Assembly: GCA_963704725.1 (NCBI GenBank)
Contig: OY969934.1
Location: forward strand, 2,656,001 to 2,720,000
Reading direction: 5' to 3'
From: an uncultured Actinomycetes bacterium
GTDB lineage: Bacteria; Actinomycetota; UBA4738; HRBIN12
Length of the DNA stretch: 64,000 nucleotides
Made by a program: the position numbers and the translations under genes. This document shows positions 135 to 51,599 of the stretch, one piece after another. Position 1 is the first letter of the stretch. Every line of letters begins with the position of its first letter. The notes below the pieces were generated by a model. It saw only the letters and a list, made by a program, of their open reading frames with translations, was not told the origin of the DNA and ran no database searches.

Positions 135-428
135 GTGCCCCGGACGCGGAGCGACGTCCTCGCGCTGGACATGGGCGACGGGGTCATCCTCTACGACCAG
201 CACTCGAGCCTGGTTCATCACCTGAACCCCTCGGCGTCGGTCCTGTGGAACCTGTGCGACGGGGAGGCGGACGGCACCGAGCTGGCCGCCGAGATCGCCG
301 AGGCGTTCGGGCTGGATCGCGACGCCGTCGCGGCTCAGGTCGAGGGCTTCATCCAGGAGCTGGACGCGCTCGGGCTCATCGAGGACGCCGGCGGGGCCGA
401 GAGGCCGACCGCGACGGACGGCTCGTGA
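135..428 (+). CDS. PqqD-family / RiPP recognition element (RRE) peptide chaperone
   Basis: 97 aa with the PqqD pattern 'DGVILYD...HHLNPSASVLWNLCDG...LAAEIAEAF...VEGFIQELDALGLI'. The frame is open back to the window start, so the true start may lie further upstream. Confidence 0.85.
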   Translation: MPRTRSDVLALDMGDGVILYDQHSSLVHHLNPSASVLWNLCDGEADGTELAAEIAEAFGLDRDAVAAQVEGFIQELDALGLIEDAGGAERPTATDGS

Positions 429-451
429 GCCCGGAGGAGGGGGAGCCGACG

Positions 452-862
452 ATGGACTCGAGGGATGGGGAGCTGAAGCGGCGCGACTTCCTGCGCCGGG
501 CCGCCGTGACGGGGATGGCCGCGGCGTGGGCGGCGCCGGTCATCCAGACGGTCGCGGCGACCCCGGCGTTCGCGCAGACCCAGGGGAGCCCCCCGTCCGA
601 CGGCGGCTGCTTCCACTCGACGGGGACGAACGGCGGCTGCATGCCCGCCTGCGCGGACCTCGCCGGCTGCGGCGGGAACCAGTGCGGCGGCAACAACCCG
701 AACAGCGCGAACGGGCCGTGCACCGCGTACTGCCCGCCGGGAGCGGGCGGCGGCAACCCGTGCTGCAACCCCGGCCTGTGCGACCCGGCCAACTTCACGT
801 GCAGCACGTCCCAGAACGGCGTGGCGACGTACAACGGGTCGCTGGCCGGCTGCGCCGGCTGA
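452..862 (+). CDS. Tat-leader, cysteine-rich secreted peptide / candidate RiPP precursor
   Basis: ATG at 452 follows a strong RBS (GGAGGAGGGGGAG). The leader has RRDFLRRAA, WAAPVI and an AFA cleavage-like site. The 95-aa Gly/Asn/Pro-rich core has 12 Cys. It lies directly after the PqqD gene. Confidence 0.8.
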   Translation: MDSRDGELKRRDFLRRAAVTGMAAAWAAPVIQTVAATPAFAQTQGSPPSDGGCFHSTGTNGGCMPACADLAGCGGNQCGGNNPNSANGPCTAYCPPGAGGGNPCCNPGLCDPANFTCSTSQNGVATYNGSLAGCAG

Positions 863-879
863 ACACGAGCGGCGGACCG

Positions 880-907
880 AGAGCGGCGGGCGTTCGCCCG
901 CCGCTCT
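880..907. terminator. Hairpin between convergent genes, likely bidirectional terminator
   Basis: Perfect 12-bp stem AGAGCGGCGGGC / GCCCGCCGCTCT with a GTTC loop, between stops at 862 (+) and 914 (-). Confidence 0.7.
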
Positions 908-913
908 TGCGCG

Positions 914-1840
914 TCAGCCCGGAGGGAATCGCTCGTCCAGGAGCTCGGCCCGCTCCGGTGGGGTCCCTCCGGCCAGCTCGAACGCCTCGGCCCGCTCCGC
1001 GACCCGCGAGAGCAGGATCACCCCCCGCTCCGCGTACCGGTACAGGTTCGTCGAGTGCGCGGCCATCCGCTCGACCGCACCGGCCCGGGTGACCGGCGTG
1101 AGCCGCGGGGGGCCCACACGATCCTCCCCGATGAACACGATCCATCGGGGGTCCGTCGGCCCCGCGACCGTCGCGCCGAGGTCCTCCGGGCGCACGTGCC
1201 TGGTGGGGAGCCCGGCGCCGAGCCCCCCGCGGTCCTCGAGGCGCTCGTGCAGGTCTCCGAAGAACGCGAGCGCCTCGTCGTCGACCGCGATCCGCCGCTC
1301 GAACGGATGGATGCGCCCGGTGACGGGATCGATCGCTCCAAGCTCGTCCGACAGGTACGAGAACCCCCGCCGAAGGAGGCCGAGGACGAGCGAGGACTTG
1401 CCCACGTCCGGCCGGGCCGGCAGGAGCATCGCCTCACCCCTCCGCTCGACGGCCCCGGCGTGGATCAGGACGAAGTCGCGGGTGCGGGCCGAGACCTCCG
1501 CGTGCAGCAACCACACGGCGTGCGCGAGAACGCCGCTCAGGTCGTGCTGCGTATAACGGAGCGCGTTCCCCACGAACAGCGAGTACAGGGGCGGGTCGGC
1601 TCCGATGTCCTGCTCCTGCACGTACAGGTCGACGGGGAAGGCCGAGACCTCCGGCGTCGCCCGGCGGAACGGCGCGAGGTGCCAGGCCAGCGCCTCGGCG
1701 AAGCCCTCGTCCGTGGATCGGACGGTGAACGAGAGCGACAGCATCCGGTAGTGATCCTCTGCGACCCAGCCCGGGTCGAAGTCGTCCACTCAGCCGCCGC
1801 CCGACCGCACCGGCGCTCGCTCGTCCGCCACCTCGCTCAC
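914..1840 (-). CDS. HPr kinase-related P-loop protein (intact Walker A) with in-frame UGA at 1790-1792, candidate selenoprotein
   Basis: HprK-like signature 'LIHAGAVERRGEAMLLPARPDVGKSSL...YLSDE'. The annotated ORF 914-1789 is preceded in frame by TGA and 13-16 sense codons (GTG at 1831 or 1840) that begin right after the upstream gene's stop. Confidence 0.8.
1759..1792 (-). promoter_or_regulatory. UGA plus SECIS-like stem-loop (kinase paralog A)
   Basis: mRNA reads UGA-GUGGACGACUU-CGACCC-GGGCU-GGGUCG: an 11-nt spacer, a 6-7 bp stem and a G-rich apical loop, extended by a 3' bulged C and U-A/U-G pairs. Confidence 0.55.
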
Positions 1841-1844
1841 CCCC

Positions 1845-2792
1845 TCACTCGTGCTCTGTCGCCGTGGTCACGAGGAGCTCGGCGGCCTCCGGGATCGACC
1901 CCACGACCAACGTGGCCACCGGCACGGAACCCAGGAGGTCCTGCATGACGAGGAACGCCCGGTCCGTCCAGATGTGCAGGTTGAGGAGGGCCTGGGTGAA
2001 CCGGAACAGCGCCTCGGCGCGCCCGATCTCCTGCAGCTCCGTGGGGCGGCCGGGCGCGAACGTGGGGAACACGATCCACCCCGGGAGCGTCGGCTCGGCC
2101 GCCGCCCCCCGGAACTCCTCGATCCGGACGGGCCGCCGGGGCGTCCTCGCCCCCAGCCTGTCGGGATCGGCGAGCAGCGTCAGGCGCCGCCGCCCCGGCG
2201 CCCGCCCCAGCTCGGGGAACAGACCGATGTCCGTGGTGTCGATCAGCAGCGGCAGGACCGAGCCGTGCGCCCGGCGCAGCACCGGGTCCAGGCTCACGAG
2301 CTCGTCGCCCAAGTAGCCCGCGCCGCGGCGAACCATCGCCCCCACGAGCGCGGGCAGGTGCGGCTCGGGAACCGAGGGCAGCAGCAGCGCCCGCTTCCCG
2401 ATCGCCACGCCGCCGGCGCGGACCCGGATGTACTCGTTCGAGTGCTGCGTCGCGAGGTCGCGGACCCCGGAGATGATCCGGCCGGCCATCTCGTCCCGGT
2501 CGACCCCTTCGAAGATCTTCAGCGCACCGATGTACAGGCGGCTCTTGCCCCGGACGACCTTTCCGCCGGCGAGCACGGTGTCCGGACCGACGTCCGCCGA
2601 GAAGTGATTGACGGCTTCGGCCCGCTCCACGCGGAACGCGCGCAGGTGGGCGCGCAGGAGCTCCAGGAAGCTCTCGTCGGTGGCGCGCACGGTGAAGCCG
2701 AGGGCGTCCACCGTGTAGTGATCCGTAGCGACCCAACCTAGCCGCTCGAGCTCGGCCTCTCAGTCGGTGCGCGGTCGGCGTTCCTCGACCAT
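1845..2792 (-). CDS. HPr kinase-related paralog with degenerate P-loop and in-frame UGA at 2760-2762, candidate selenoprotein
   Basis: Aligns by eye with the neighbouring kinase (GWVATDHYTVDALGFTVRATD vs GWVAEDHYRMLSLSFTVRSTD; YLGDE vs YLSDE). ATG at 2792 has an AGGGGG RBS and reads MVEERRPRTD-TGA-EAELERLGWVATDHY into the annotated ORF 1845-2711. Confidence 0.75.
2723..2762 (-). promoter_or_regulatory. UGA plus SECIS-like stem-loop (kinase paralog B)
   Basis: mRNA reads UGA-13 nt-AGCGGCU-AGGUUG-GGUCGCU, then a bulged A and 3 more pairs. The apical loop is 20 nt from the UGA and is encoded with codons rare at this GC content (CTA GGT). Confidence 0.55.
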
Positions 2793-2831
2793 CCGGCCCC
2801 CTGCCCCGTCTCGTCGTGACGAACGCGGGTC

Positions 2832-2840
2832 ACAGTAGCA
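2832..2840 (-). promoter_or_regulatory. Extended -10 promoter element for the kinase pair
   Basis: Minus strand reads TGC-TACTGT (TGn-TANNNT) about 40 nt upstream of ATG 2792. Confidence 0.4.
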
Positions 2841-2855
2841 AGCTGCGCCCGGTGG

Positions 2856-4220
2856 TCAGCTCGACGGCGCCCAGATGGGTCCGACGCAGTCGTCGCGCAG
2901 GGGGAGCACGGCCGGCCGTCGTGGCTCCCGATCGAAGTCGAAGGCCGACAGGAGGGGCGTCGCGTCGCGATCGCGATGGGTGAGCTGGGTGAGGCCCCAA
3001 TTGTCCTCGATGAAACGTAGCACGCTCGAGAACTCCCCCAGCTCGCTCGAGACCAGGCCCTGCTTGGCGTACGGGCTGATCAGGAGCATCGGGACGCGGA
3101 TCCCGAAGCCGAACTGGTCGACCTGAGGCGGCGGGACGTGGTCGTAGAAGCCCCCGTAGTCGTCCCACGTGAGGAAGATCGCGGTGTCCTTCCACATGGG
3201 CGAGCGCATGATCGCGTCGATGACCTTCGTGCTCCAGTTCTCGCCGTGGCAGAAGTTGAACTCCGGATGCTCGGACAGCTCGAATCGCGGCGTGATCCAC
3301 GTGACGGGCGGCAGCAGCCCCGCCCGGATGTCGTCGATCACGTTGTCGACCGGGTAGATGTGCCGCTGCCAGCGATCGGGATGCATGCGATACCGGTGGA
3401 TCGCGCTGTACGCGGACCAGATGTACCCGCGCTGGTCCTCCTGCGCCGCGTAGTACGCCCACGGGATGCTCGAGCGCGTGAGCAGGTCGCCCTCGGTGAG
3501 GAAGTCGAAGCAGGGCGCGACCATCTTGATCTTGCCCTCGCTGTCGTGCACCTCGACGAGCTGCTGGGCCGGGGCGTCGCACCCGAACGTGTTCGAGCCG
3601 CGGGTCGAGGGGAGGCTCCGTCGCGGGTTGTCGACCGCACCGCCCGAGGTGGCCGCGATCGAGTAGAGGTGGTTGGGGAACGACGGCCCCTGGGCGCTGG
3701 CGAAGAAGTTGTCGAACAGCACGAAGTCCTGGGCCCACGTCCAGTAGTTGGGGAGCTGGTCGCGGACGAGCTGCGAGTACGCCCACTCGGGGTTCTCGCC
3801 CTGCCAGAACCCGTCCATCGCGCCCTCGTTCCAGGCCTCGAGCGCGCACTGGTAGCAGTGTGGCAGGTCACCCGGCAGCCGCCCGTCGGTGCCCGGGATG
3901 AGGGGCCACGCCCGCCCGTCTCGCCGCCCCACGCTCACGCCGTTCGCACCGGGGAACGTGCCGAACAGGTTGTCGAACGTCCGGTTCTCCTTGATCAGGA
4001 ACACCACGTGCTTGATGGGGAACTCGGTCGGCAGCGAGCCGGCATCGAAGGCCTCGGGCGCCCCCGTCGTGATCACGCTCGGACTCGCCGACGCCGAGGG
4101 GGAGGCGGAGGGCGACCGCTGCGAAGCGTCGTCGCCGCCGTCGCAGGCCGCCGCGACCAGCGCGAGGGCGAGGAGGACGGCCGCCCAGCGAAGGGCGCGC
4201 GGGCTACGGGGGTGCCGCAT
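2856..4220 (-). CDS. Phosphoesterase / phospholipase C-family lipoprotein
   Basis: '[20 protein letters not shown]', 'GPSFPNH', '[15 protein letters not shown]', '[12 protein letters not shown]'; lipobox LVAAAC. Confidence 0.9.
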
Positions 4221-4301: not shown

Positions 4302-5135
4302 TCAGAGCGAGCCCAGCACCCCCCGGATCGAGGTGTCGAGCGGAGGGAACGGCGGGAGTCCGAGGTGTGGGACGAACGCGCTCGTCATCGCGCTGTACCG
4401 GGGGCGGGGGGCCCGCAGCGCGAGCTGGTCGGCCCGCTGCTCCTGCACGGTCCCCGGCAGGCCGGCTATCGATCTCGCCCGCGTCAGGACCTCGAACCAC
4501 GTCGTCGGCTCGGGACCGGCCAGGTGGTAGGTGCCGAAGCGGCCGGTGAGCGCCAGCGGGAGCAGGCGCTCGGCCAGGTCCCGCACGAACGTCGGGGTGC
4601 CGACACGGTCGACCAGACCGCCGGCGGGCTCCCCCACCGCCAGCCGGCGGAGCGCCCCGGTGAGGAAGTCCGTTCCCCCGCCGAACACGTACCCCGTCCG
4701 CACGACGAAGGACTCGGGCGCGAGCGCGCGGACGTGCCGCTCGCCGGCGAGCTTGCTCCGCCCGTACACGCTCAGGGGCCCGGTCGCGTCGAGCTCGTCG
4801 TACGGCGCGCCCTTCGCGCCGTCGAACACGTAGTCGGTCGAGACGTGCACCAGCACGGCGCCGGTCGATCTGGCCGCCAGCGCGAGCGACTGCGGACCGA
4901 GGGCGTTGTCACGCGCCGCCCGCGCCGGATCCGCTTCGCACGCGTCGACCTGCGTGAAGGCGGCTGCGTTCACGATCAGGTCGGGCGCGAGCGGCACGAG
5001 CGTGCGCATCACCGCGTGATGGTCGCCGACGTCGAGGTCCTCGTGCCCGAACGGATGCAGGTCGTGATGCGACGGACAGGCGTCGAGGAAGGCCCGCCCG
5101 AGGCCGCCCCCGGCCCCGGTCACGGCGATCCTCAC
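4302..5135 (-). CDS. rfbD: dTDP-4-dehydrorhamnose reductase
   Basis: 'VTGAGGGLG', 'NAAAFTQVDACE', 'STDYVFDG', 'YGRSKLAGE', 'APRP'. Confidence 0.92.
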   Translation of the reverse strand: MRIAVTGAGGGLGRAFLDACPSHHDLHPFGHEDLDVGDHHAVMRTLVPLAPDLIVNAAAFTQVDACEADPARAARDNALGPQSLALAARSTGAVLVHVSTDYVFDGAKGAPYDELDATGPLSVYGRSKLAGERHVRALAPESFVVRTGYVFGGGTDFLTGALRRLAVGEPAGGLVDRVGTPTFVRDLAERLLPLALTGRFGTYHLAGPEPTTWFEVLTRARSIAGLPGTVQEQRADQLALRAPRPRYSAMTSAFVPHLGLPPFPPLDTSIRGVLGSL

Positions 5136-5154
5136 GCGGGAGCCTCCGTTCGGC

Positions 5155-6132
5155 TCACGCGGGCGCCCCCGCGAGCACCTCGCCCACCCAGTCCTGGTGG
5201 TCGCGGTACCAGGCCAGCGTGATGGCCAGCCCGTCCGAGAACGGCGTGGCCGGTCGCCACCCGAGGCCATCGAGCCGATCCCACCGCAGGCCGTACGCGA
5301 GGTCGTGTCCGGGTCGGTCGGGCACGAAGGTGACGAGGCCTTCGTCGACGCCGAGGTAGGAGCAGATGCGCTTGGCCAGCTCGAGGTTGGTCATCTCGGT
5401 GCCGCCGCCGATGTTGTAGCTCGTGCCCGCCTGGCCGTGCTCGAGCACCAGCCCGACGGCCCGAACGAAGTCCCGGACGTACAGCCACTCCCGGCGGTTG
5501 CGGCCGTCGCCGTACACGGGGATGGGAAGTCCTTGCAGCGCAGCGTTCGCCCACGTGGGGATGGCCTTCTCCGGGTGCTGCCGCGGGCCGAACGCGTTCG
5601 TGCCCCGGATCGTCGTGACGGGCAGGCCGTAGGTGATCGCGTACGAGCGGCACAGCAGGTCGGCGCCGGCCTTGCTCGCCGCGTACGGGTTCCGGGGAAG
5701 CATGGGAGCGTCCTCGCCGAACGGCTCGGACTCGCTCGACCCGTAGACCTCGTCGGTCGACACGAACAGCAAGGGCTTGCCCAGCTCGCGGCACGCCTCG
5801 AGCACGACCTGCGTGCCGAGGACGTTCGAGAGCACGAACGCCCGGGCGTCGTCGATGCTGCGGTCGACGAAGGACTCGGCGGCGGCGTGAACGACCTTGT
5901 CCGCCCACTCGACCAGACCGACCACGTCCTGCGGGACCGCCACGTCGCCGAGCACGAAGCGGAACCTCGGATCGGGCTCGTGGTGGACGAGGTTCCGTCG
6001 CGTACCGGCGTACGTGAGCTTGTCCAGCACGGTGACGTCGGTGGTGGGCCGCTCGAGCAGCAGGTCCACGAGGTGGGAGCCGATGAAGCCGGCCCCTCCC
6101 GTGACGAGGACGTGCTCACGACGCTCGGCCAT
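5155..6132 (-). CDS. rfbB: dTDP-glucose 4,6-dehydratase
   Basis: 'VTGGAGFIGS', 'LDKLTYAG', 'AAESFVDRSI', 'VSTDEVYG', 'YAASKA', 'DRPGHD'. Confidence 0.93.
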   Translation of the reverse strand: MAERREHVLVTGGAGFIGSHLVDLLLERPTTDVTVLDKLTYAGTRRNLVHHEPDPRFRFVLGDVAVPQDVVGLVEWADKVVHAAAESFVDRSIDDARAFVLSNVLGTQVVLEACRELGKPLLFVSTDEVYGSSESEPFGEDAPMLPRNPYAASKAGADLLCRSYAITYGLPVTTIRGTNAFGPRQHPEKAIPTWANAALQGLPIPVYGDGRNRREWLYVRDFVRAVGLVLEHGQAGTSYNIGGGTEMTNLELAKRICSYLGVDEGLVTFVPDRPGHDLAYGLRWDRLDGLGWRPATPFSDGLAITLAWYRDHQDWVGEVLAGAPA

Positions 6133-6145
6133 GGTGCGCCCGAGT

Positions 6146-7306
6146 CTACCGGCGGTGCCCTGCGCCGGCGCCCGCCGCCTGCAGCACCTCGGCCGTGCGC
6201 CGGGCCGTCTCCTGCCACGTGTACGCCCGGACCCGTTCGGCCCCGGCGCGGCGCAGCCCCTCCCGGAGCCCCTCGTCGCGCAGGAGGCGATCGAGGCCGT
6301 CGGCGATGGCCGCGGCGTCGAGCGGATCGACGAGCAGCGCGGCCCTCCCCGCCACCTCCGGAAGCGCGGAGGTGTCGGCCGTGAGCACGGGGAGCCCGGC
6401 GGCGAACGCCTCCAGCACGGGGAACCCGAAGCCCTCGTGGAGCGACGGGTACGCGAGCGCCTCCGCCCCGGCGAGGAGCGCACGCTTGTCCGCCTCCGAG
6501 ACGTAGCCCGTGAGGACGACGCGCCGGCGGACGGCCTCGGGGAGCTTCTCGACCGCCGCCCGCAGCCGCCCGGCCTCGTCGGGGATCCAGTTCACCTCAC
6601 CCCCGGCGATCACGAGCCAGGCGTCGGTACCGCAGGCGCGGAACGCCTCGACGAGCCGGACCAGGTTCTTGCGGGGGTCGATCCCTCCGACGAACAGCAC
6701 GTACCGCCCGCCGATGCCGAACCGTTCGCGGACGCCCGCGACCTCGGCCGGCGGCGGCGGCACGAACGCCTCCGCGCCGTGGGCGATCGCGTGGATCCGG
6801 GCCGGGTCGACGTCGTCGTGATGGACCAGGAGATCGCGTCTCGCGCTCTCCGACGGGACGATGACGCCTGCCGCTCGGCGCAGCCATCGACGGAACACCC
6901 GCCGCCAACGGGCGTCGATCTGCGGAGCCATCTCGGGGAAGCGCTCGTACGCGAGATCGTGGACGACGAGCACGACCCCTCGGCTCCTCGTGGCCGGGGG
7001 CAGGAAGTTGGTCGCCAGCAGCGCGTCGAAGTCCAGCCGCAGCCACTCGAGGCGCGGCATCCCGATCCGCCACGTGACCGGCTGGAACACGCGCGCGGGG
7101 AAGCGCGACGGATGCTCGGTGAGGTTCGGCGCGAGGCCCTCGAAGAACCGGCGCCGCGTGACCAGGCCTTTCGCGTGGAGGTACCAGGCGACGTACTCGG
7201 GCAAGGGGTCTTCGGCCGGGAGGTGCCGGAGGATCTGGCGCGTGTAGTGGCCGACGCCGGTGCCGTGCGGATCCAGTGCCGGGCGCGCGTCGATCGCGAT
7301 GCGCAC
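6146..7306 (-). CDS. Glycosyltransferase family 4 (GT-B)
   Basis: 'TGVGHY', 'VHDL', 'PRKNL', 'YPSLHEGFGFPVLEAFAAGLPV'. Confidence 0.9.
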   Translation of the reverse strand: MRIAIDARPALDPHGTGVGHYTRQILRHLPAEDPLPEYVAWYLHAKGLVTRRRFFEGLAPNLTEHPSRFPARVFQPVTWRIGMPRLEWLRLDFDALLATNFLPPATRSRGVVLVVHDLAYERFPEMAPQIDARWRRVFRRWLRRAAGVIVPSESARRDLLVHHDDVDPARIHAIAHGAEAFVPPPPAEVAGVRERFGIGGRYVLFVGGIDPRKNLVRLVEAFRACGTDAWLVIAGGEVNWIPDEAGRLRAAVEKLPEAVRRRVVLTGYVSEADKRALLAGAEALAYPSLHEGFGFPVLEAFAAGLPVLTADTSALPEVAGRAALLVDPLDAAAIADGLDRLLRDEGLREGLRRAGAERVRAYTWQETARRTAEVLQAAGAGAGHRR

Positions 7307-7312
7307 GCCGGT

Positions 7313-8371
7313 TCAGTCGACCTCGACGCGACTCTGGTCGCCGATCACGAGGCGCTGGACGCCCTCCACGCCGGAGTGGCGGACCTCGGCGTTGCGTCCC
7401 AGGATCGAACCGCGTACCGTCCGCACCCCCTCGATGCGCGAACCCTCCATCGCGATCGAGTCCTCGACGCGGCTCGAGGCGACGACGCACGACGCCGACA
7501 GCGCGACGTCGGGTCCGAGAGTGGAGTCCTCGACGAGCGAGCCCGCCCCCACGATCACCGGCCCGACGATCGTCGACCGCACGACCTTCGCGCCGGCCTC
7601 GACGACGACGATCCCGGACAGCTCCGACGCCTCGTCGACCTCTCCCGCGATCCTCGGCTCAAGAACCGAGAGCATCATCCGGTTCGCCTCGAGCAGGTCC
7701 TCGGGGCGGCCGGTGTCCTTCCAATAGCCCGTCACCATCTCGGCCCGGACGGTCCGGCCGTGATCGATCAGCCACTGGATGGCCTCGGTGATCTCGTACT
7801 CGCCCCGCCACGAGGGCTTCAGGGTCGCGGCGGCCTCGAGGATCGAGTCGTCGAACAGGTACACGCCGACGAGCGCGAGGTCCGACAGGAACTCCTTCGG
7901 CTTCTCGACCAGCCGGACGACCCGGTCGCCCTCCAGCACCGCCACGCCGAAGTGCTCGGGCTCGGGTACCCGGGCCAGGAAGATCTGCGCGTCGGGCCGG
8001 TGGCGCTCGAACTCCTCGACGAAGCGCCGGATCCCGCCCATGAGGACGTTGTCGCCGAGGTACATCACGAAGGGCTCGCCTCGGACGAAGTCGGCGGCCG
8101 TCGTCACGGCGTTCGCCAGTCCGAGCGGCGCCGGCTGGTGGATGTAGGTCACGTCCAGGCCCCACGCCGAGCCGTCGCCGACCGCTGCCCGCACCTCGTC
8201 CGCGGTCTGGCCGACGACGAGCCCCACCTCGACGATCCCGGCCTCCGCGATCGCCGACAGCACGTGGAACAGGATCGGGGTGTTGGCAACCGGGATCAGC
8301 TGCTTCGCGTTCGTGTGGGTGATCGGGCGGAGCCGGGAGCCCTCCCCGCCCGAGAGGACGAGCGCTCTCAC
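7313..8371 (-). CDS. rfbA: Glucose-1-phosphate thymidylyltransferase (long form)
   Basis: 'LSGGEGSRLRPITHTNAKQLIPVAN', 'YLGDN', 'VEKP', 'WKDTG', C-terminal beta-helix. GTG 8371 overlaps the upstream stop. Confidence 0.9.
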   Translation of the reverse strand: MRALVLSGGEGSRLRPITHTNAKQLIPVANTPILFHVLSAIAEAGIVEVGLVVGQTADEVRAAVGDGSAWGLDVTYIHQPAPLGLANAVTTAADFVRGEPFVMYLGDNVLMGGIRRFVEEFERHRPDAQIFLARVPEPEHFGVAVLEGDRVVRLVEKPKEFLSDLALVGVYLFDDSILEAAATLKPSWRGEYEITEAIQWLIDHGRTVRAEMVTGYWKDTGRPEDLLEANRMMLSVLEPRIAGEVDEASELSGIVVVEAGAKVVRSTIVGPVIVGAGSLVEDSTLGPDVALSASCVVASSRVEDSIAMEGSRIEGVRTVRGSILGRNAEVRHSGVEGVQRLVIGDQSRVEVD

Positions 8372-9792
8372 GTGGGGCACTCTACCTGTGGACCGGTCTG
8401 CGGCGCAGGGATCCGGTAGCCGCCCGTGATGACGACCGCCACGTCCTGGCCGACCGGCAGCGTTCCGGGGGGCGCCGGGACGAGCTCCAGGTTGGGGAAG
8501 TACGTCCCCACGACCTTGGCCATGTCCTCGGTGCCCTCGCGATACAGGATCATCGCGCCCTTGCGCGGCGCGTCGACCGCCGATGCGTCGACGATCCCCG
8601 GAGACGTGTTGAACCCGCCCTCGGTGAGCACCGTCGACACCTCGGTCGCGACGCCGCCCGACCGCTTGTCCACGACGGAGACGACGATGTTGGCGGGCGA
8701 GGGGGCGACGCCGGCGAGCTCGAGGCCGAGGTCGCCGAGCGGCTGGTTGTCGCGAAGCCGCCTGAACAGCTCATTCGCGTCCGGCTGCACCATGTTCACG
8801 ATCGACAGGAACGTGCCGTTGCTGTCGTAGATCCCCGCGGGGGTGCTCGGCACGGAGCGGAAATCGGCGTTGTCCGTCCCTACGCTGCCGAGCTGGTCCG
8901 CGAGGTACACGAGGTCGGCCACGTTCATCCCCTCGTCGACGACGAGGTTGTCGAGGAGCTCGGGGACGAGGCTCGGCAGGTGGAGCAGCTCTCCCGGTTG
9001 GAGCAGCTTGCTGATGACGGCGCGCAGGAACTGCTGCTGTCGTCCGATCCGGGCGAAGTCGGGGACGCGGTCACAGGGTTGATGGCGTGTCCGCACGTAC
9101 GCGAGCGCCGTGGCCCCGTCGAAGTCCTGGCACCCGGCGCCGATGTCCAGCCCGGTGAGCTCGTCCTGCATCGGATAGGGGACGCACATCCGGACGCCGC
9201 CCAGCGCGTCCACCAGTCCCTCGAAGCCGGCGAGCGACACGTACATCACGTGGTGGACCTGCATCCCGGTGATCTGCGTGACGGTTCGCGCGACCCTGGC
9301 TGCCCCGGCGCCCTTGATACCGCCCGAGAACGCCGAGTTGATCTTGCCCTGCCCCATCCCCGGGATGTCGACCCACAGATCGCGTGGGAAGGACAGGAAC
9401 GTCGCCTCCTTCTGACCGGGGCGCGTGTGGACCAGGATGATCGTGTCGGAACGATTCTCGCCGCCGATGTCGGCGTTCGTGCCGAAATGCTCCTGCTCCT
9501 GCGCGGAGAGCCCTTGCCGCGAGTCGCTCCCCAGCAGGAGGTAGTTGCAGGCGTGCGTCGCGCACTTGCCCAGGATGTCGTGCACGTCGGGCTGCGGCGA
9601 GCCCGAGGGCACGGGCGCGTCGACGATGTCGATCGTCTGTCGCTGGGCGTTCGCCCAGACGTACGCCCCCATGCCGACGGCCGAGCCCAGCATCACGAGC
9701 GCGGCGAACGCGGCAGAGGCGCCGAGCAGCGTGCGGCGCAGGTGGGGATGCGGGTGGCCCTGTCGTGCGGGCGTGGCGGGTCCGTCGGACAT
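8368..9792 (-). CDS. LCP (LytR-CpsA-Psr) glycopolymer transferase with LytR_C domain
   Basis: N-terminal TM, 'LLLGSDSR', 'RSDTIIL', 'SFPRDLWV', 'ALAYVRTR', 'DFARIGRQQ'. Confidence 0.9.
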   Translation of the reverse strand: MSDGPATPARQGHPHPHLRRTLLGASAAFAALVMLGSAVGMGAYVWANAQRQTIDIVDAPVPSGSPQPDVHDILGKCATHACNYLLLGSDSRQGLSAQEQEHFGTNADIGGENRSDTIILVHTRPGQKEATFLSFPRDLWVDIPGMGQGKINSAFSGGIKGAGAARVARTVTQITGMQVHHVMYVSLAGFEGLVDALGGVRMCVPYPMQDELTGLDIGAGCQDFDGATALAYVRTRHQPCDRVPDFARIGRQQQFLRAVISKLLQPGELLHLPSLVPELLDNLVVDEGMNVADLVYLADQLGSVGTDNADFRSVPSTPAGIYDSNGTFLSIVNMVQPDANELFRRLRDNQPLGDLGLELAGVAPSPANIVVSVVDKRSGGVATEVSTVLTEGGFNTSPGIVDASAVDAPRKGAMILYREGTEDMAKVVGTYFPNLELVPAPPGTLPVGQDVAVVITGGYRIPAPQTGPQVECPT

Positions 9793-14762: not shown

Positions 14763-15174
14763 ATGAAGAAGCGATCCGCGATGACGATCGCGGGCGGACT
14801 CGTCGCAGCGCTGCTCGCCGGCGCCGTGGCCCTGTCGCTCGGGTTCGCGAGCGGCTCCCCTTCGACGACGGCCGCCCCGACGACCCGAGAGCCCCGCGTC
14901 CGCACGATCGAGCGAACGATCAAGATCCACCGCAAGTCCAAGCACACCCCGGCGCCCGTCGTCCGGACGATCCCGGCGCCCGCCGCCCCAGCCCCGGCCG
15001 CGCCGGCAACGAGGTCCCGGCCGTCCGCCGACCGCCCGTCGTCCGGCACGCCGAGCGGTGGCATGGTCGGAGAGCGACGACGAGTCCGACGACCAGTTCG
15101 AGAGCGAGGAGGACCACAGCCAGGACCACGAGTCCGACGACGATGGCGAGGACGACGGCGGGTTCGATGACTGA
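14763..15174 (+). CDS. Membrane-anchored Pro-rich protein with acidic/His tail (apparent frameshift near 15065)
   Basis: RBS GAGGAGG and a signal/TM segment. An alternative frame from about 15070 encodes ESDDESDDQFESEEDHSQDHESDDDGEDDGGFDD* with normal codon usage. Confidence 0.55.
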
Positions 15175-23324: not shown

Positions 23325-24695
23325 TCACTGCACGACGAGCGCGGTGACCATCCCGAACATGCCCTGCGGCCCCTCCACGTGCGGCAGGATGTGGCAGTGG
23401 AACGCCCACACGCCGGGGTTGTCGGCGTGCACGAGCACGTCGAACCGCTGGCCGGGGGCGACCATGATCGTGTCGGCCAGGTACCGGTTGGCCCGACTGA
23501 ACGCGTAGCCGTCCTCGGCGACCACCTCGAAATGGAAGCCGTGCAGGTGCATGGGGTGGATCATCGCGCCGTCGTTCGCGATGTGGATCAGCACGTCGTC
23601 GCCGAGCTGGGCCACGATCGGCTGGGTCGCGGGGAAGCCCTTGCCGTTGAGCACGTAGCCGAACGGGCCGTCGCCGAGGAACAGCGTGCTCTCCACCTCG
23701 ACCTTCTGGCCGTAGACGGAGCTCCAGTCGCCGTTCGGCGGATCCACGTAGAGCGCGCCGTACAGACCCTTGCCCACCTGCTCGGTCGAATTGAAGTGGG
23801 AGTGGTAGACGTACATCCCCGGCGGATCCACGATCGGGAACTCGTACGTGAAGAAGCCGCCCGGCAGGATGGGATCCTGCGTGATGTAGGGCACCCCGTC
23901 CATGTCGTTCGGCACTTCGAGACCGTGGAAGTGGACGGTGGTGGGCTGCGACATCTCGTTGCGCACCACGATCCGGACCTTGTCGCCCTGGTTCACGTGG
24001 ATCTCGGGGCCGGGGACGGTCCCGTTGAAGCCCATGGCGTCCACGAAGACGCCCGGGGAGGTCTCCCATCGGACCTCCTGGACCGTGAGCTCGAAGACCT
24101 TGACGCCGTTCTCGATCGTGGGCTCGAGGACCTGGTTGCCTTGGCCCTGCGTCTGGGCGGGGAACGCCTCCATCGCCGCGCGGTGGCCGTCGAGCATCTC
24201 CTGGCTGCTCATCCCGGCATGCGAGCTCATCCCGGGCATCGAGCCCGAGGAGCCGGAGGCCCCGCTCGCACCGGCCGCCACCACGCCTCCGGAGGAGACG
24301 GTCAGCGAGCCGACCATCCCGAGGTCGGCGTGGCCGGCGATCGTGCAGGAGTAGCGGTAGTCGCCCGCGTCGAGCCCCGCGACCTGGAGCGTCTGCGTCT
24401 CGCCGGGCTGCAGCTCGCGGGTCTGCTCGACGCCGCTCCCCGTGTCGACGGCGAAGGTATGGGCGGCCGTGCCGTCGTTCGAGACGTCGAACGACAGGGT
24501 CTGCCCGGAGGGCGCGTCGATGTGGGCCGGTGTGATCGCGAACTCGGTGAGCGAGACGGCGAACGAGGCCGGCGCCGCCTGGGTACCGTCGCCCTCCTGC
24601 GTCCCTCCCCCGTCACCGCCGCACGCCCCGGCCGCCAGCATCAGCACCGCGGCCGCGGCCCCGACCGCGAACGCCTGGACCCGCCTCGTCGTCAT
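23325..24695 (-). CDS. Lipoprotein: cupredoxin plus two-domain multicopper oxidase
   Basis: Lipobox AAGAC; cupredoxin 'CTIAGHADLGM'; 'VHFHG', 'YHSH', 'HPMHLHG', 'FHCHILPH...GM'. Confidence 0.88.
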   Translation of the reverse strand: MTTRRVQAFAVGAAAAVLMLAAGACGGDGGGTQEGDGTQAAPASFAVSLTEFAITPAHIDAPSGQTLSFDVSNDGTAAHTFAVDTGSGVEQTRELQPGETQTLQVAGLDAGDYRYSCTIAGHADLGMVGSLTVSSGGVVAAGASGASGSSGSMPGMSSHAGMSSQEMLDGHRAAMEAFPAQTQGQGNQVLEPTIENGVKVFELTVQEVRWETSPGVFVDAMGFNGTVPGPEIHVNQGDKVRIVVRNEMSQPTTVHFHGLEVPNDMDGVPYITQDPILPGGFFTYEFPIVDPPGMYVYHSHFNSTEQVGKGLYGALYVDPPNGDWSSVYGQKVEVESTLFLGDGPFGYVLNGKGFPATQPIVAQLGDDVLIHIANDGAMIHPMHLHGFHFEVVAEDGYAFSRANRYLADTIMVAPGQRFDVLVHADNPGVWAFHCHILPHVEGPQGMFGMVTALVVQ

Positions 24696-50414: not shown

Positions 50415-51599
50415 TCACGCGACCCGCCGGATGACCAGGGCGTCCCCCTGGCCGCCGCCGCCGCAGATCGTCGCCGCGCCGAGGTCGACGCTCCGCCGGC
50501 GCATCTCGTGGGCGAGCGTCAAGACGATCCGGGCCCCGCTCATCCCGATCGGGTGGCCGAGCGAGACGGCGCCGCCGTTCACGTTCGTCAGCTCCTCGTC
50601 GAAGCCGAGCACTCGGGTCACGTTCAGCGAGACCGCGGCGAAGGCCTCGTTCACCTCGAGCAGGCCGAGGTCGTGCACGTCGAGCTGCGCCCTCTTCAGC
50701 GCGTGCTGCAGCGCGATCGCCGGGACGGTGTGGAGATAGGTGAAGCGCTCGGCCGACATCCCGTGCGCGACGATCTCGGCGAGCGGCGTCAGCCCGAGCT
50801 GCTCGGCGCGCTCCCGGCTGGTCACCACGACCGCCGCCGCGCCGTCGCTGAGCTGGGAGGCGTTGCCCGCGGTGATCGTGCCGTCCTCGTTGAACGAGGG
50901 CTTCAGCCTCGCCAGGACCTCGGGCGTCGTCTCCGGCCGGATGCCCTCGTCGCGATCGACGACCACCGGGTCGCCCCGACGCTGGGGGATCTCGATCGGG
51001 ACGGTCTCCTCCGCGAGCCGTCCGGACTCCCACCCAGCGTGCGCGCGGACGTGCGACCGCGCCGCCCACGCGTCCTGCTCCTCGCGGGTGATGCCGAGCT
51101 CCGCGTTCACCTCGTCCGACGACGCGCCCATGGGCTGCCGGCGGAAGCTCGACCACAGCCCGTCGTGGACCATCGAGTCGATCATCTGCGTGTGCCCGAG
51201 GCGCGAGCCGTCCCGGGCCGCCGGCACGAGGTACGGAGCCTGGGTCATCGACTCCATCCCGCCGGCGACCACCACGTCCACGTCCCCGGCCCGGATCATC
51301 TGGTCCGCGAGCGCGATCGCCGTGATCCCCGACAGGCACACCTTGTCGACGTTCAGCGCCGGGACCTCTTTGGGGATCCCCGCGGCGACCGCCGCCTGCC
51401 TGGCCGTGACCTGCCCGGTGCCGGCCCGGAGCACCTGCCCCATGACCACGTAGTCCACCCCCGCGCCCTCGACGCCGGAGCGGGCGAGGGCTTTCCGGAT
51501 CGCGGCCGCACCGAGCTCGACCGCGGACAGGCCGGCCAGCGCGCCCCGGAACCGACCGATCGGCGTCCGCGCGCCGGCGACGATGACGGATGCGGTCAT
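50415..51599 (-). CDS. Acetyl-CoA C-acyltransferase (thiolase)
   Basis: 'KVCLSG', 'GGMESM', 'NEAF', 'GHPIGMSG', 'CGGGGQG'. Confidence 0.95.
   Translation of the reverse strand: MTASVIVAGARTPIGRFRGALAGLSAVELGAAAIRKALARSGVEGAGVDYVVMGQVLRAGTGQVTARQAAVAAGIPKEVPALNVDKVCLSGITAIALADQMIRAGDVDVVVAGGMESMTQAPYLVPAARDGSRLGHTQMIDSMVHDGLWSSFRRQPMGASSDEVNAELGITREEQDAWAARSHVRAHAGWESGRLAEETVPIEIPQRRGDPVVVDRDEGIRPETTPEVLARLKPSFNEDGTITAGNASQLSDGAAAVVVTSRERAEQLGLTPLAEIVAHGMSAERFTYLHTVPAIALQHALKRAQLDVHDLGLLEVNEAFAAVSLNVTRVLGFDEELTNVNGGAVSLGHPIGMSGARIVLTLAHEMRRRSVDLGAATICGGGGQGDALVIRRVA

Follow-up and report, generated by a model that had tools for sequence, protein, structure and literature searches.

In a 64,000-nt stretch of the genome of an uncultured Actinomycetes bacterium (contig OY969934.1, positions 2,656,001 to 2,720,000; hereafter the window), two paralogous genes, A and B, lie head to tail on the minus strand, and the reading frame of each is broken once by a TGA. 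Both encode proteins distantly related to HPr kinase (HprK). We propose that the two tandem HprK-related genes encode a new selenoprotein pair in which selenocysteine (Sec) would be inserted at the UGA, a reading to which we give a probability of about 0.8. What is expected of a selenoprotein was found for both paralogs: a UGA conserved within coding sequence, a following hairpin that resembles a selenocysteine insertion sequence (SECIS), homologs carrying Cys, and the Sec machinery. The original prediction, made from the letters of the window, had named the pair as a candidate new selenoprotein family; the conserved UGA, the Cys homologs, rare codons and covarying stem arms described below all support it.

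The minus-strand reading bears out the predicted positions of the two UGAs, the start codons and the motif GWVAxDHY shared by A and B (Table 1). In B the sequence 3' of the TGA reads EAELERL-GWVATDHYTV, and the first canonical start codon after the TGA, GTG 2711, indeed lies downstream of the shared motif. In A a GTG (1789) directly follows the TGA and the sequence reads VDDFDP-GWVAEDHY. The hairpins had been placed 11-13 nt after the UGA; they are present there, at 11 nt in A and 13 nt in B, and RNAfold predicts both stems. The hairpin of A has a 6-bp stem, a loop starting 17 nt after the UGA and a folding energy of -9.4 kcal/mol. The loop of the B hairpin starts 20 nt after the UGA, and its energy is -8.7 kcal/mol for the perfect 7-bp stem or -11.2 kcal/mol for an extended stem with one bulge.

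Orthologs of both genes were taken from 41 related genomes, from all 294 genomes of the class, from one genome per species of a public collection (14 loci), from metagenome contigs (16 loci) and from a 401-genome sample of the phylum; ortholog counts refer to distinct N-terminal sequences. Counted back from the conserved Trp codon, the TGA stands at exactly nine codons in 29/29 B-type sequences and at eight or nine in 21 of 42 of the A-type (20 of 43 in a second count). The UGA-bearing orthologs belong to several families of the phylum and their protein identity to the window goes down to about 38-45%. Every one of the 29 B-type sequences has an upstream ATG or GTG in frame, 8-13 codons from the TGA and preceded by a Shine-Dalgarno-like site. 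The peptide encoded there is kept as protein (..RP.N. in B-type, ..GG in A-type), and between close relatives the extensions vary by synonymous substitutions and by 3 nt gained or lost in frame, which is a protein-type substitution pattern. Past the TGA the frames stay open for about 300 codons, and the extension is always in frame with the domain. A distant B-like group (loci L065, L038, L028 and L040) also keeps the TGA and the upstream frame, with an ATG or CTG after the TGA.

For the family, this conservation of TGA and frame excludes sequencing error, pseudogenisation and a simple downstream start. The TGAs could be taken for sequencing errors or inactivating mutations, and the hairpins for chance by-products of G+C-rich coding, on the grounds that the folding energies are no better than those of shuffled sequences and that the stems follow largely from the amino acids. 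Yet a TGA occupies the same column in independent assemblies, across dozens of genomes and metagenomes, the frames remain open long after it, and rare codons are kept specifically in the hairpin loop. The conservation of the TGA effectively refutes this explanation, to which we leave practically no chance. Two other candidates were rejected: an alternative genetic code, as TGA ends ordinary genes here (for example B itself, at 1845-1847), and frameshifting, as the frame is the same on either side of the UGA.

The upstream frame could also be a separate leader peptide (an upstream open reading frame) ending at the UGA, with the kinase made by coupled re-initiation and the hairpin modulating the coupling. 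Several features would suit such an arrangement: the GTG directly after the TGA in the A gene of the window, the ATG at that place in the distant B-like loci L065, L038 and L028, the ATG that occupies the TGA column in some TGA-less A-type homologs (L027, L058), and the GG codons before the A-type TGA, which resemble a Shine-Dalgarno site. But 24/29 B-type and 18/20 TGA-bearing A-type sequences lack any ATG, GTG or TTG in the stretch from the TGA to the Trp codon, and the codon after the TGA varies (GAG, GCG, GAA, ACG and ACT in B-type; GGG, GGC, CGG, CAG, CAC, CTG, ATC and AGG in A-type). In addition, the Cys forms described below fuse extension and domain in one open frame. We therefore consider re-initiation after a leader peptide very improbable. 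The same counts dispose of a start of A at GTG 1789, which the original prediction had kept as an escape route: it fails in the orthologs, and a downstream start could explain only the window's own A gene taken alone.

Gene callers that stop at TGA are expected to leave scattered downstream starts in database entries. This is what is seen: most database gene calls of both types begin downstream of the UGA column, at varying positions. As had been anticipated for a standard caller of open reading frames, all the public calls of UGA-bearing genes that we examined are truncated at the N-terminus.

To the conservation of the UGA is added that of the nucleotides behind it. We compared the conserved columns encoded by degenerate codons (68 in B-type and 77 in A-type sequences). 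In both paralog types a rare codon is the majority codon only within the hairpin: Leu CTA (11/21) and Ala GCT (9/17) in B-type, Pro CCA (11/13) and Gly GGT (9/13) in A-type, in which Val GTC is moreover invariant. The genome-wide usages of the rare hairpin codons are 0.7%, 3.5%, 3.5% and 7.2%; CTA accounts for 0.7% of Leu codons and GGT for 7.2% of Gly codons, which agrees with the predicted rarity of CTA and GGT in the B hairpin. The loop AGGUU, which is made by rare codons, almost never arises in recodings (about 0.0001). At the corresponding position of TGA-less A-type homologs CCA is found in 0/8 and GGT in 1/8.

The two arms of the B-type stem change together through amino-acid substitutions (ER..VA, DH..VV, DR..AV, EQ..AA, ED..VS, DD..VV). 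There are 20 distinct combinations; when the 3' arms were permuted 5000 times, the mean energy of the native pairs was reached just twice, a result that overstates independence, given the kinship of the sequences. Codon choice and arm covariation thus argue clearly for selection at the nucleotide level on the hairpin. The confinement of rare-codon conservation to the hairpin loop strengthens the interpretation of the UGA as a Sec codon.

Cys forms of both paralogs were found at the UGA column. For B this is protein P0223 (..RPPRNA-C-EEELQRLGW..), which comes from the protein database; a search for Cys forms of B with the pattern C[EA][EA]xLERL[GSV]W gave none in the genome and metagenome contigs. 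For A there are L082 and L147 (..RTGG-C-ED..), L057 together with P0063, P0065 and P0073 (..TAG-C-E/D..), and P0069 (..PEG-C-EP..). What the original prediction had looked for in homologs is thus largely there: the UGA is kept, Cys stands at its column in some homologs of both types, and the arms of the B-type hairpin covary.

The genome of the window has the four components of Sec insertion that had been named for checking, selA, selB, selC and selD, all with scores above the cut-offs (selA 472 bits, selB 293, selD 376 and tRNA-Sec 75). Within the class, selA is present in 22/22 TGA-bearing genomes. Four TGA-bearing genomes lie outside the class and all have Sec markers: selA in G294 and G418, and in G472 a partial selA together with selB, selD and tRNA-Sec; the fourth, G392, is considered below. 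Genome G613 has none of the four Sec markers, and the search showed no TGA in its distant homolog. We also observed that the selD of G392 (G392:C32:9189-10097) itself has an in-frame TGA, and that the SelD of the window's genome (G000:C1:2466260-2467180) has Cys in the loop ..HGAG-C-GCK...

The hairpins were then compared with known SECIS elements. The bacterial SECIS consensus, as given in the text of PMC13188914, comprises a loop of 3-9 nt with a G in its first two positions, a stem of 4-16 bp, a distance of 16-37 nt from UGA to loop and a minimum free energy of -7.5 kcal/mol or lower. In our own implementation of these constraints, both window hairpins pass, as do 14/15 TGA-bearing A-type and 19/29 B-type sequences; 342 of 3000 random TGA triplets of the genome also pass, so that the test discriminates weakly. 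With perfect stems only, the numbers are 14/15 for A-type, 15/29 for B-type and 448/3000 for random triplets.

The same genome offers two points of comparison. Its fdhA, for the alpha subunit of formate dehydrogenase (G000:C1:1791201-1793069, plus strand; TIGR01591, 621 bits), has a single in-frame TGA at 1791429. The fdhA SECIS has a spacer of 11-12 nt, a stem of 7-8 bp and a loop GGUCU at +18, and is conserved and covarying in 29 distinct fdhA sequences of the class. The second is an AhpD-like gene (G000:C1:2246244, minus strand; locus L126, 709-1287) with an in-frame TGA in the context ..RCEF-U-TGAH.. and matches to the NCBIfam family "alkylhydroperoxidase-related (seleno)protein" and to TIGR01926. 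Its hairpin has an 11-nt spacer, a 6-bp stem and a loop GGUC at +17. It is likely a selenoprotein gene of known type that a standard gene caller would split. A strict genome-wide scan for UGA plus hairpin missed known cases and was relaxed afterwards.

The kinase pair resembles fdhA/fdhF and the AhpD-like gene in having a UGA, a gap of 11-13 nt, a hairpin of 6-7 bp whose loop starts with G or GG at 17-20 nt, Cys homologs and the Sec machinery. It differs from them in its P-loop kinase-like fold, which is not that of an oxidoreductase, in the location of the candidate Sec within the first 11-17 residues and outside a CxxU-type motif, in the presence of the UGA in two adjacent paralogs, and in the rarity of Cys forms. 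The loops also differ: the loop of class fdhA is an invariant GGUCU, whereas those of the kinase genes are AGGUU or GGGCU. The likeness to known SECIS elements, judged on these comparisons, is one of architecture and not of sequence.

Several results weigh against the insertion of Sec. Two concern the machinery: selA is present in 271/294 genomes of the class, so that its co-occurrence with the UGA inside the class carries no weight, and TGA-bearing G392 gave no selA match, though it does have a partial selB (profile positions 2-269), selD and tRNA-Sec. Others concern the column itself. Cys forms are few (1/117 B-type database proteins), A-type homologs with Trp (P0022, TGG), Gly (P0044) or Ala (L035) at the UGA column exist, and many A-type homologs lack the N-terminal tail or start at the UGA column. 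In A the candidate Sec would lie in a disordered tail, outside any classical redox motif.

The remaining results of this kind concern the hairpin. The constraints of the SECIS consensus quoted above are passed by 11-15% of random TGA triplets and failed by 10/29 B-type sequences. Run over the window at E <= 10, a covariance model built from 23 class fdhA SECIS hairpins gave 71 matches, which include neither of the kinase hairpins, and an Rfam scan of 1600-2900 at E <= 10 gave no SECIS family, only two chance microRNA matches. The fdhA model is dominated by fdhA-specific sequence. Finally, folding, which had been proposed as a check on the 60 nt after each UGA, gave a divided answer: the stems are predicted as expected, but the energy of these 60 nt is no better than that of dinucleotide shuffles (z = 0.25 and 0.75; not significant in 4/5 sequences). 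The minimum free energy of the 45 nt after the UGA beats that of synonymous recodings (<= 0.05) in just 4/39 sequences, and the observed stem is reached by a median fraction of recodings of 0.17 (B-type) and 0.10 (A-type), which is not significant. Recoding the peptide according to the codon usage of the genome produces stems of 6-8 bp nearly as frequently. We have set stability aside as an argument because the amino-acid motif itself encodes the complementarity, and rely instead on the rare codons and the covariation of the arms. On balance it is the unremarkable stability, the failure of the fdhA model, the small number of Cys forms and the non-Cys residues of A-type homologs that weaken the case for Sec.

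Some of these results would also suit a UGA that is read through without Sec. The hairpin would then stimulate a near-cognate tRNA, for instance tRNA-Trp, and the UGA would be a translational throttle or regulator at which the inserted residue is chemically idle. The Trp, Gly or Ala of some A-type homologs, and the lack of a tail in others, imply that A-type proteins do not strictly depend on which residue stands there, and both the ordinary stability of the hairpins and their not being recognised by the fdhA model are compatible with this explanation. However, Cys, the usual replacement of Sec, recurs in similar contexts (G-C-E/D and A-C-E-E), in one protein of the B-type and in three or more lineages of the A-type. 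The position of the hairpin and its G-rich loop fit the bacterial SECIS consensus, in the form cited, and the bona fide SECIS elements of the genome. Sec markers are present in every TGA-bearing genome examined, and the constancy of the UGA in B-type sequences would be odd if any sense codon would do. We hold read-through without Sec to be improbable, and retain Sec insertion as the interpretation of both UGAs.

By their profile scores both paralogs are distant relatives of the NCBIfam family TIGR04352 ("HprK-related kinase A"), not members of it. A scores 88.6 bits (E = 3.5e-25) and B 58.5 bits (E = 5e-16), each over nearly the whole length of the model and each far below the equivalog cut-off of 200 bits. 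"HPr-kinase-like", the predicted identity, therefore stands as a distant relationship only: the TIGR04352 matches speak for it, and the Pfam HPr-kinase family PF07475 gave for A a weak match at the P-loop (12.6 bits, E = 0.1, gathering threshold 33.3) and did not match B. No Pfam family was assigned to either protein, and a PDB sequence search gave no chain matching A or B. A third HprK-related paralog is encoded elsewhere in the same genome (G000:C1:2838057-2838818, minus strand), with 32% identity to A (E = 4e-25).

The AlphaFold model of A (pLDDT, the predicted local distance difference test, 92.8) has its best structural matches among ATP-dependent phosphoenolpyruvate carboxykinases (Foldseek E about 2e-6, TM-score 0.45-0.54, query-normalised), whose P-loop fold class includes HPr kinase/phosphorylase (HprK/P); no HprK/P chain is among the 50 Foldseek matches listed for this model. 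Unlike HprK/P and the carboxykinase fold, A has an extra N-terminal beta-hairpin and the presumed Sec tail. Residues 6-18, with the candidate Sec at position 17, are modelled as disordered (pLDDT < 50). The Walker A residues G147 and K148 are invariant in A-type proteins, and S149 is invariant or nearly so. The tails of A-type orthologs are acidic and His-rich and end in GG ahead of the TGA. Ahead of the UGA or Cys the tails often abound in His and Asp, with stretches of the kind DHDHEHDH, as in loci L073, L076, L075, L079, L082, L065, L038 and L040 and in protein P0069. Such tails suggest metal binding.

In the AlphaFold model of B (pLDDT 91.5), residues 10-17 form a short helix ahead of the first beta-strand (22-28), and the candidate Sec, residue 11, stands at the N-terminal end of this helix. 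A start at GTG 2711 (V28) would strip both helix and strand from the model. The invariant columns of B-type proteins include no GK[ST], the consensus there being LLLPSxPxPHLPAL. B is probably a non-catalytic pseudokinase partner that has lost the Walker A lysine.

Upstream of B the original prediction had noted a ribosome-binding site and an extended -10 element before ATG 2792. The Shine-Dalgarno-like site is there, and many orthologs have a TAnnnT element at a comparable distance ahead of the B start (TGnTAnnnT in 9/23); the promoter itself found no support from a two-hexamer consensus and terminator scan of 800-3000, which returned nothing, TGCTACTGT included. The position of TAnnnT in the orthologs fits a transcript whose first start preceded by a Shine-Dalgarno site would be that of the B extension.

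Table 1. Features of the kinase-like gene pair and of the adjoining cassette genes in the window (SD, Shine-Dalgarno; TAT, twin-arginine).
Feature	Coordinates	Strand	Remarks
Paralog B gene	1845-2792	-	ATG 2792-2790 to stop 1847-1845; single in-frame TGA
B-type N-terminal extension	2763-2792	-	ATG 2792 and 9 codons, MVEERRPRTD; G-rich SD-like site in front
Paralog B in-frame UGA, candidate Sec codon	2760-2762	-	residue 11
SECIS-like hairpin of B	2727-2746	-	13-nt spacer; AGCGGCU 2746-2740, loop AGGUUG 2739-2734, GGUCGCU 2733-2727
Paralog B remainder	1845-2759	-	304 codons and stop; HprK-related fold, no Walker A lysine, probable pseudokinase
-10-like element TGCTACTGT upstream of B, candidate promoter	2832-2840	-	
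Paralog A gene	914-1840	-	GTG 1840 or GTG 1831 to stop 916-914
A-type N-terminal extension	1793-1840	-	GTG 1840 or 1831 to GGC 1793, ..VADERAPVRSGGG; SD-like GAGGGGG in front
Paralog A in-frame UGA, candidate Sec codon	1790-1792	-	residue 17 from GTG 1840
SECIS-like hairpin of A	1762-1778	-	11-nt spacer; CGACCC 1778-1773, loop GGGCU 1772-1768, GGGUCG 1767-1762
Paralog A remainder	914-1789	-	291 codons and stop; P-loop protein, intact Walker A (..GKSS)
PqqD-family peptide-chaperone gene	135-428	+	Pfam PF05402, E = 2e-14; TIGR04353, 46.8 bits (cut-off 35)
Cys-rich protein gene, TAT signal	440-862	+	140 residues; weak TIGR02811 TAT-target match, E = 0.0012

The pair belongs to a four-gene cassette: a PqqD-family gene is followed by a gene for a Cys-rich protein with a TAT signal, and A and B converge on both. 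This arrangement is found in most loci, with or without a UGA in A, and agrees with the predicted setting, a locus resembling those of ribosomally synthesized and post-translationally modified peptides (RiPPs). The C-terminal half of the Cys-rich protein is rich in Cys, Gly, Asn and Pro and no Pfam family matches it; it is likely the substrate or precursor of the cassette. A G+C-rich inverted repeat (863-913) lies between the convergent Cys-rich gene and A; no T-run follows it and it was not called a terminator.

TIGR04353, matched by the PqqD-family protein, is the NCBIfam family "HPr-rel-A system PqqD family". As in the HPr-rel-A system (TIGR04352 with TIGR04353), kinase homologs and a PqqD gene form a cassette here; unlike in that system, the kinase scores are far under the cut-off and the second paralog lacks the Walker A lysine. 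Lasso-peptide clusters contain HPr-kinase-like precursor-peptide kinases. The cassette is like them in having genes for a kinase-like protein, a PqqD-type peptide-binding protein and a peptide side by side. It is unlike them in its putative substrate, a protein of 140 residues that is Cys-rich and carries a TAT signal, and in its paired kinases, both with a UGA; the flanks examined showed neither a lasso cyclase nor a protease.

On one side the cassette is flanked by genes for glycosyltransferases, an ABC-2 permease, a nucleotidyltransferase and a methyltransferase. Directly upstream of B lies a gene for a secreted protein of the phosphoesterase family (2856-4220, minus strand; PF04185, E = 3e-69), and the frames at 4302-8380 resemble, from their translations, enzymes of the dTDP-rhamnose pathway and glycosyltransferases. 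Elsewhere in the window, the best matches to the fdhA SECIS model are at 14867-14887, 24645-24671 and 51498-51527, all on the minus strand (15.5-17.1 bits; E = 0.005-0.017, on a rough calibration); these are probably chance G+C-rich hairpins.

The literature searched does not describe selenocysteine in the HPr-rel-A family, nor does it name any HprK-like selenoprotein; supplementary tables of selenoproteome surveys, which lay outside that search, could list the family. The words "HPr" and "PqqD" have zero occurrences in the main text of PMC13188914 and PMC12013277.

We propose the following sequence of events. Transcription would start upstream of B, and ribosomes would initiate at the extension start preceded by a Shine-Dalgarno site, ATG 2792 in B and GTG 1840 or 1831 in A. 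After 10-17 codons they would reach the in-frame UGA. The hairpin, 11-13 nt further on and within the codons for the (F)DPGWV and LERLGWV motifs, would act as a bacterial SECIS and recruit SelB with Sec-tRNA(Sec), so that Sec is inserted and translation enters the kinase-like domain. The pair presumably acts on the Cys-rich, TAT-exported protein.

What the Sec tails would do there may be imagined in three ways: selenol-thiol redox exchange with the Cys-rich substrate, handling of metal by the His-rich tails, or a mobile loop like that of SelD; the original prediction had named, beside a redox or metal-ligand role, a device that would make expression depend on selenium. SelD, too, uses ATP and has, in a flexible segment at its N-terminus, a Cys or Sec with glycines on either side, comparable to the ..GG-U-G.. 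of the A-type tails; it has no relationship of sequence or fold to the kinase pair, and the analogy is a lead only. One could go further and see in the Sec tails of the ATP-binding A and the pseudokinase B the working parts of a new peptide-maturation chemistry, by which sulfur, selenium or a metal would be handled on the Cys-rich protein prior to export by the TAT route. We regard this extension as speculative and rather unlikely. If true, it would make A and B the first kinase-fold selenoenzyme pair, in the first selenoprotein-dependent RiPP-like pathway, and the scarcity of Cys forms of B (one, versus UGA in 29/29) would mean that Sec is chemically indispensable in B.

For the family as a whole, the N-terminal truncation of the public gene calls hides it from annotation and from selenoproteome surveys based on homology. 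The hairpin indicates how rare codons can embed a SECIS in a conserved protein motif. The use of selenium would be linked here to a conserved cassette that comprises PqqD and a secreted, Cys-rich peptide. If confirmed, the pair would constitute a selenoprotein family beyond the usual oxidoreductases, a kinase and a pseudokinase with N-terminal Sec tails, present in many uncultured Actinomycetota.

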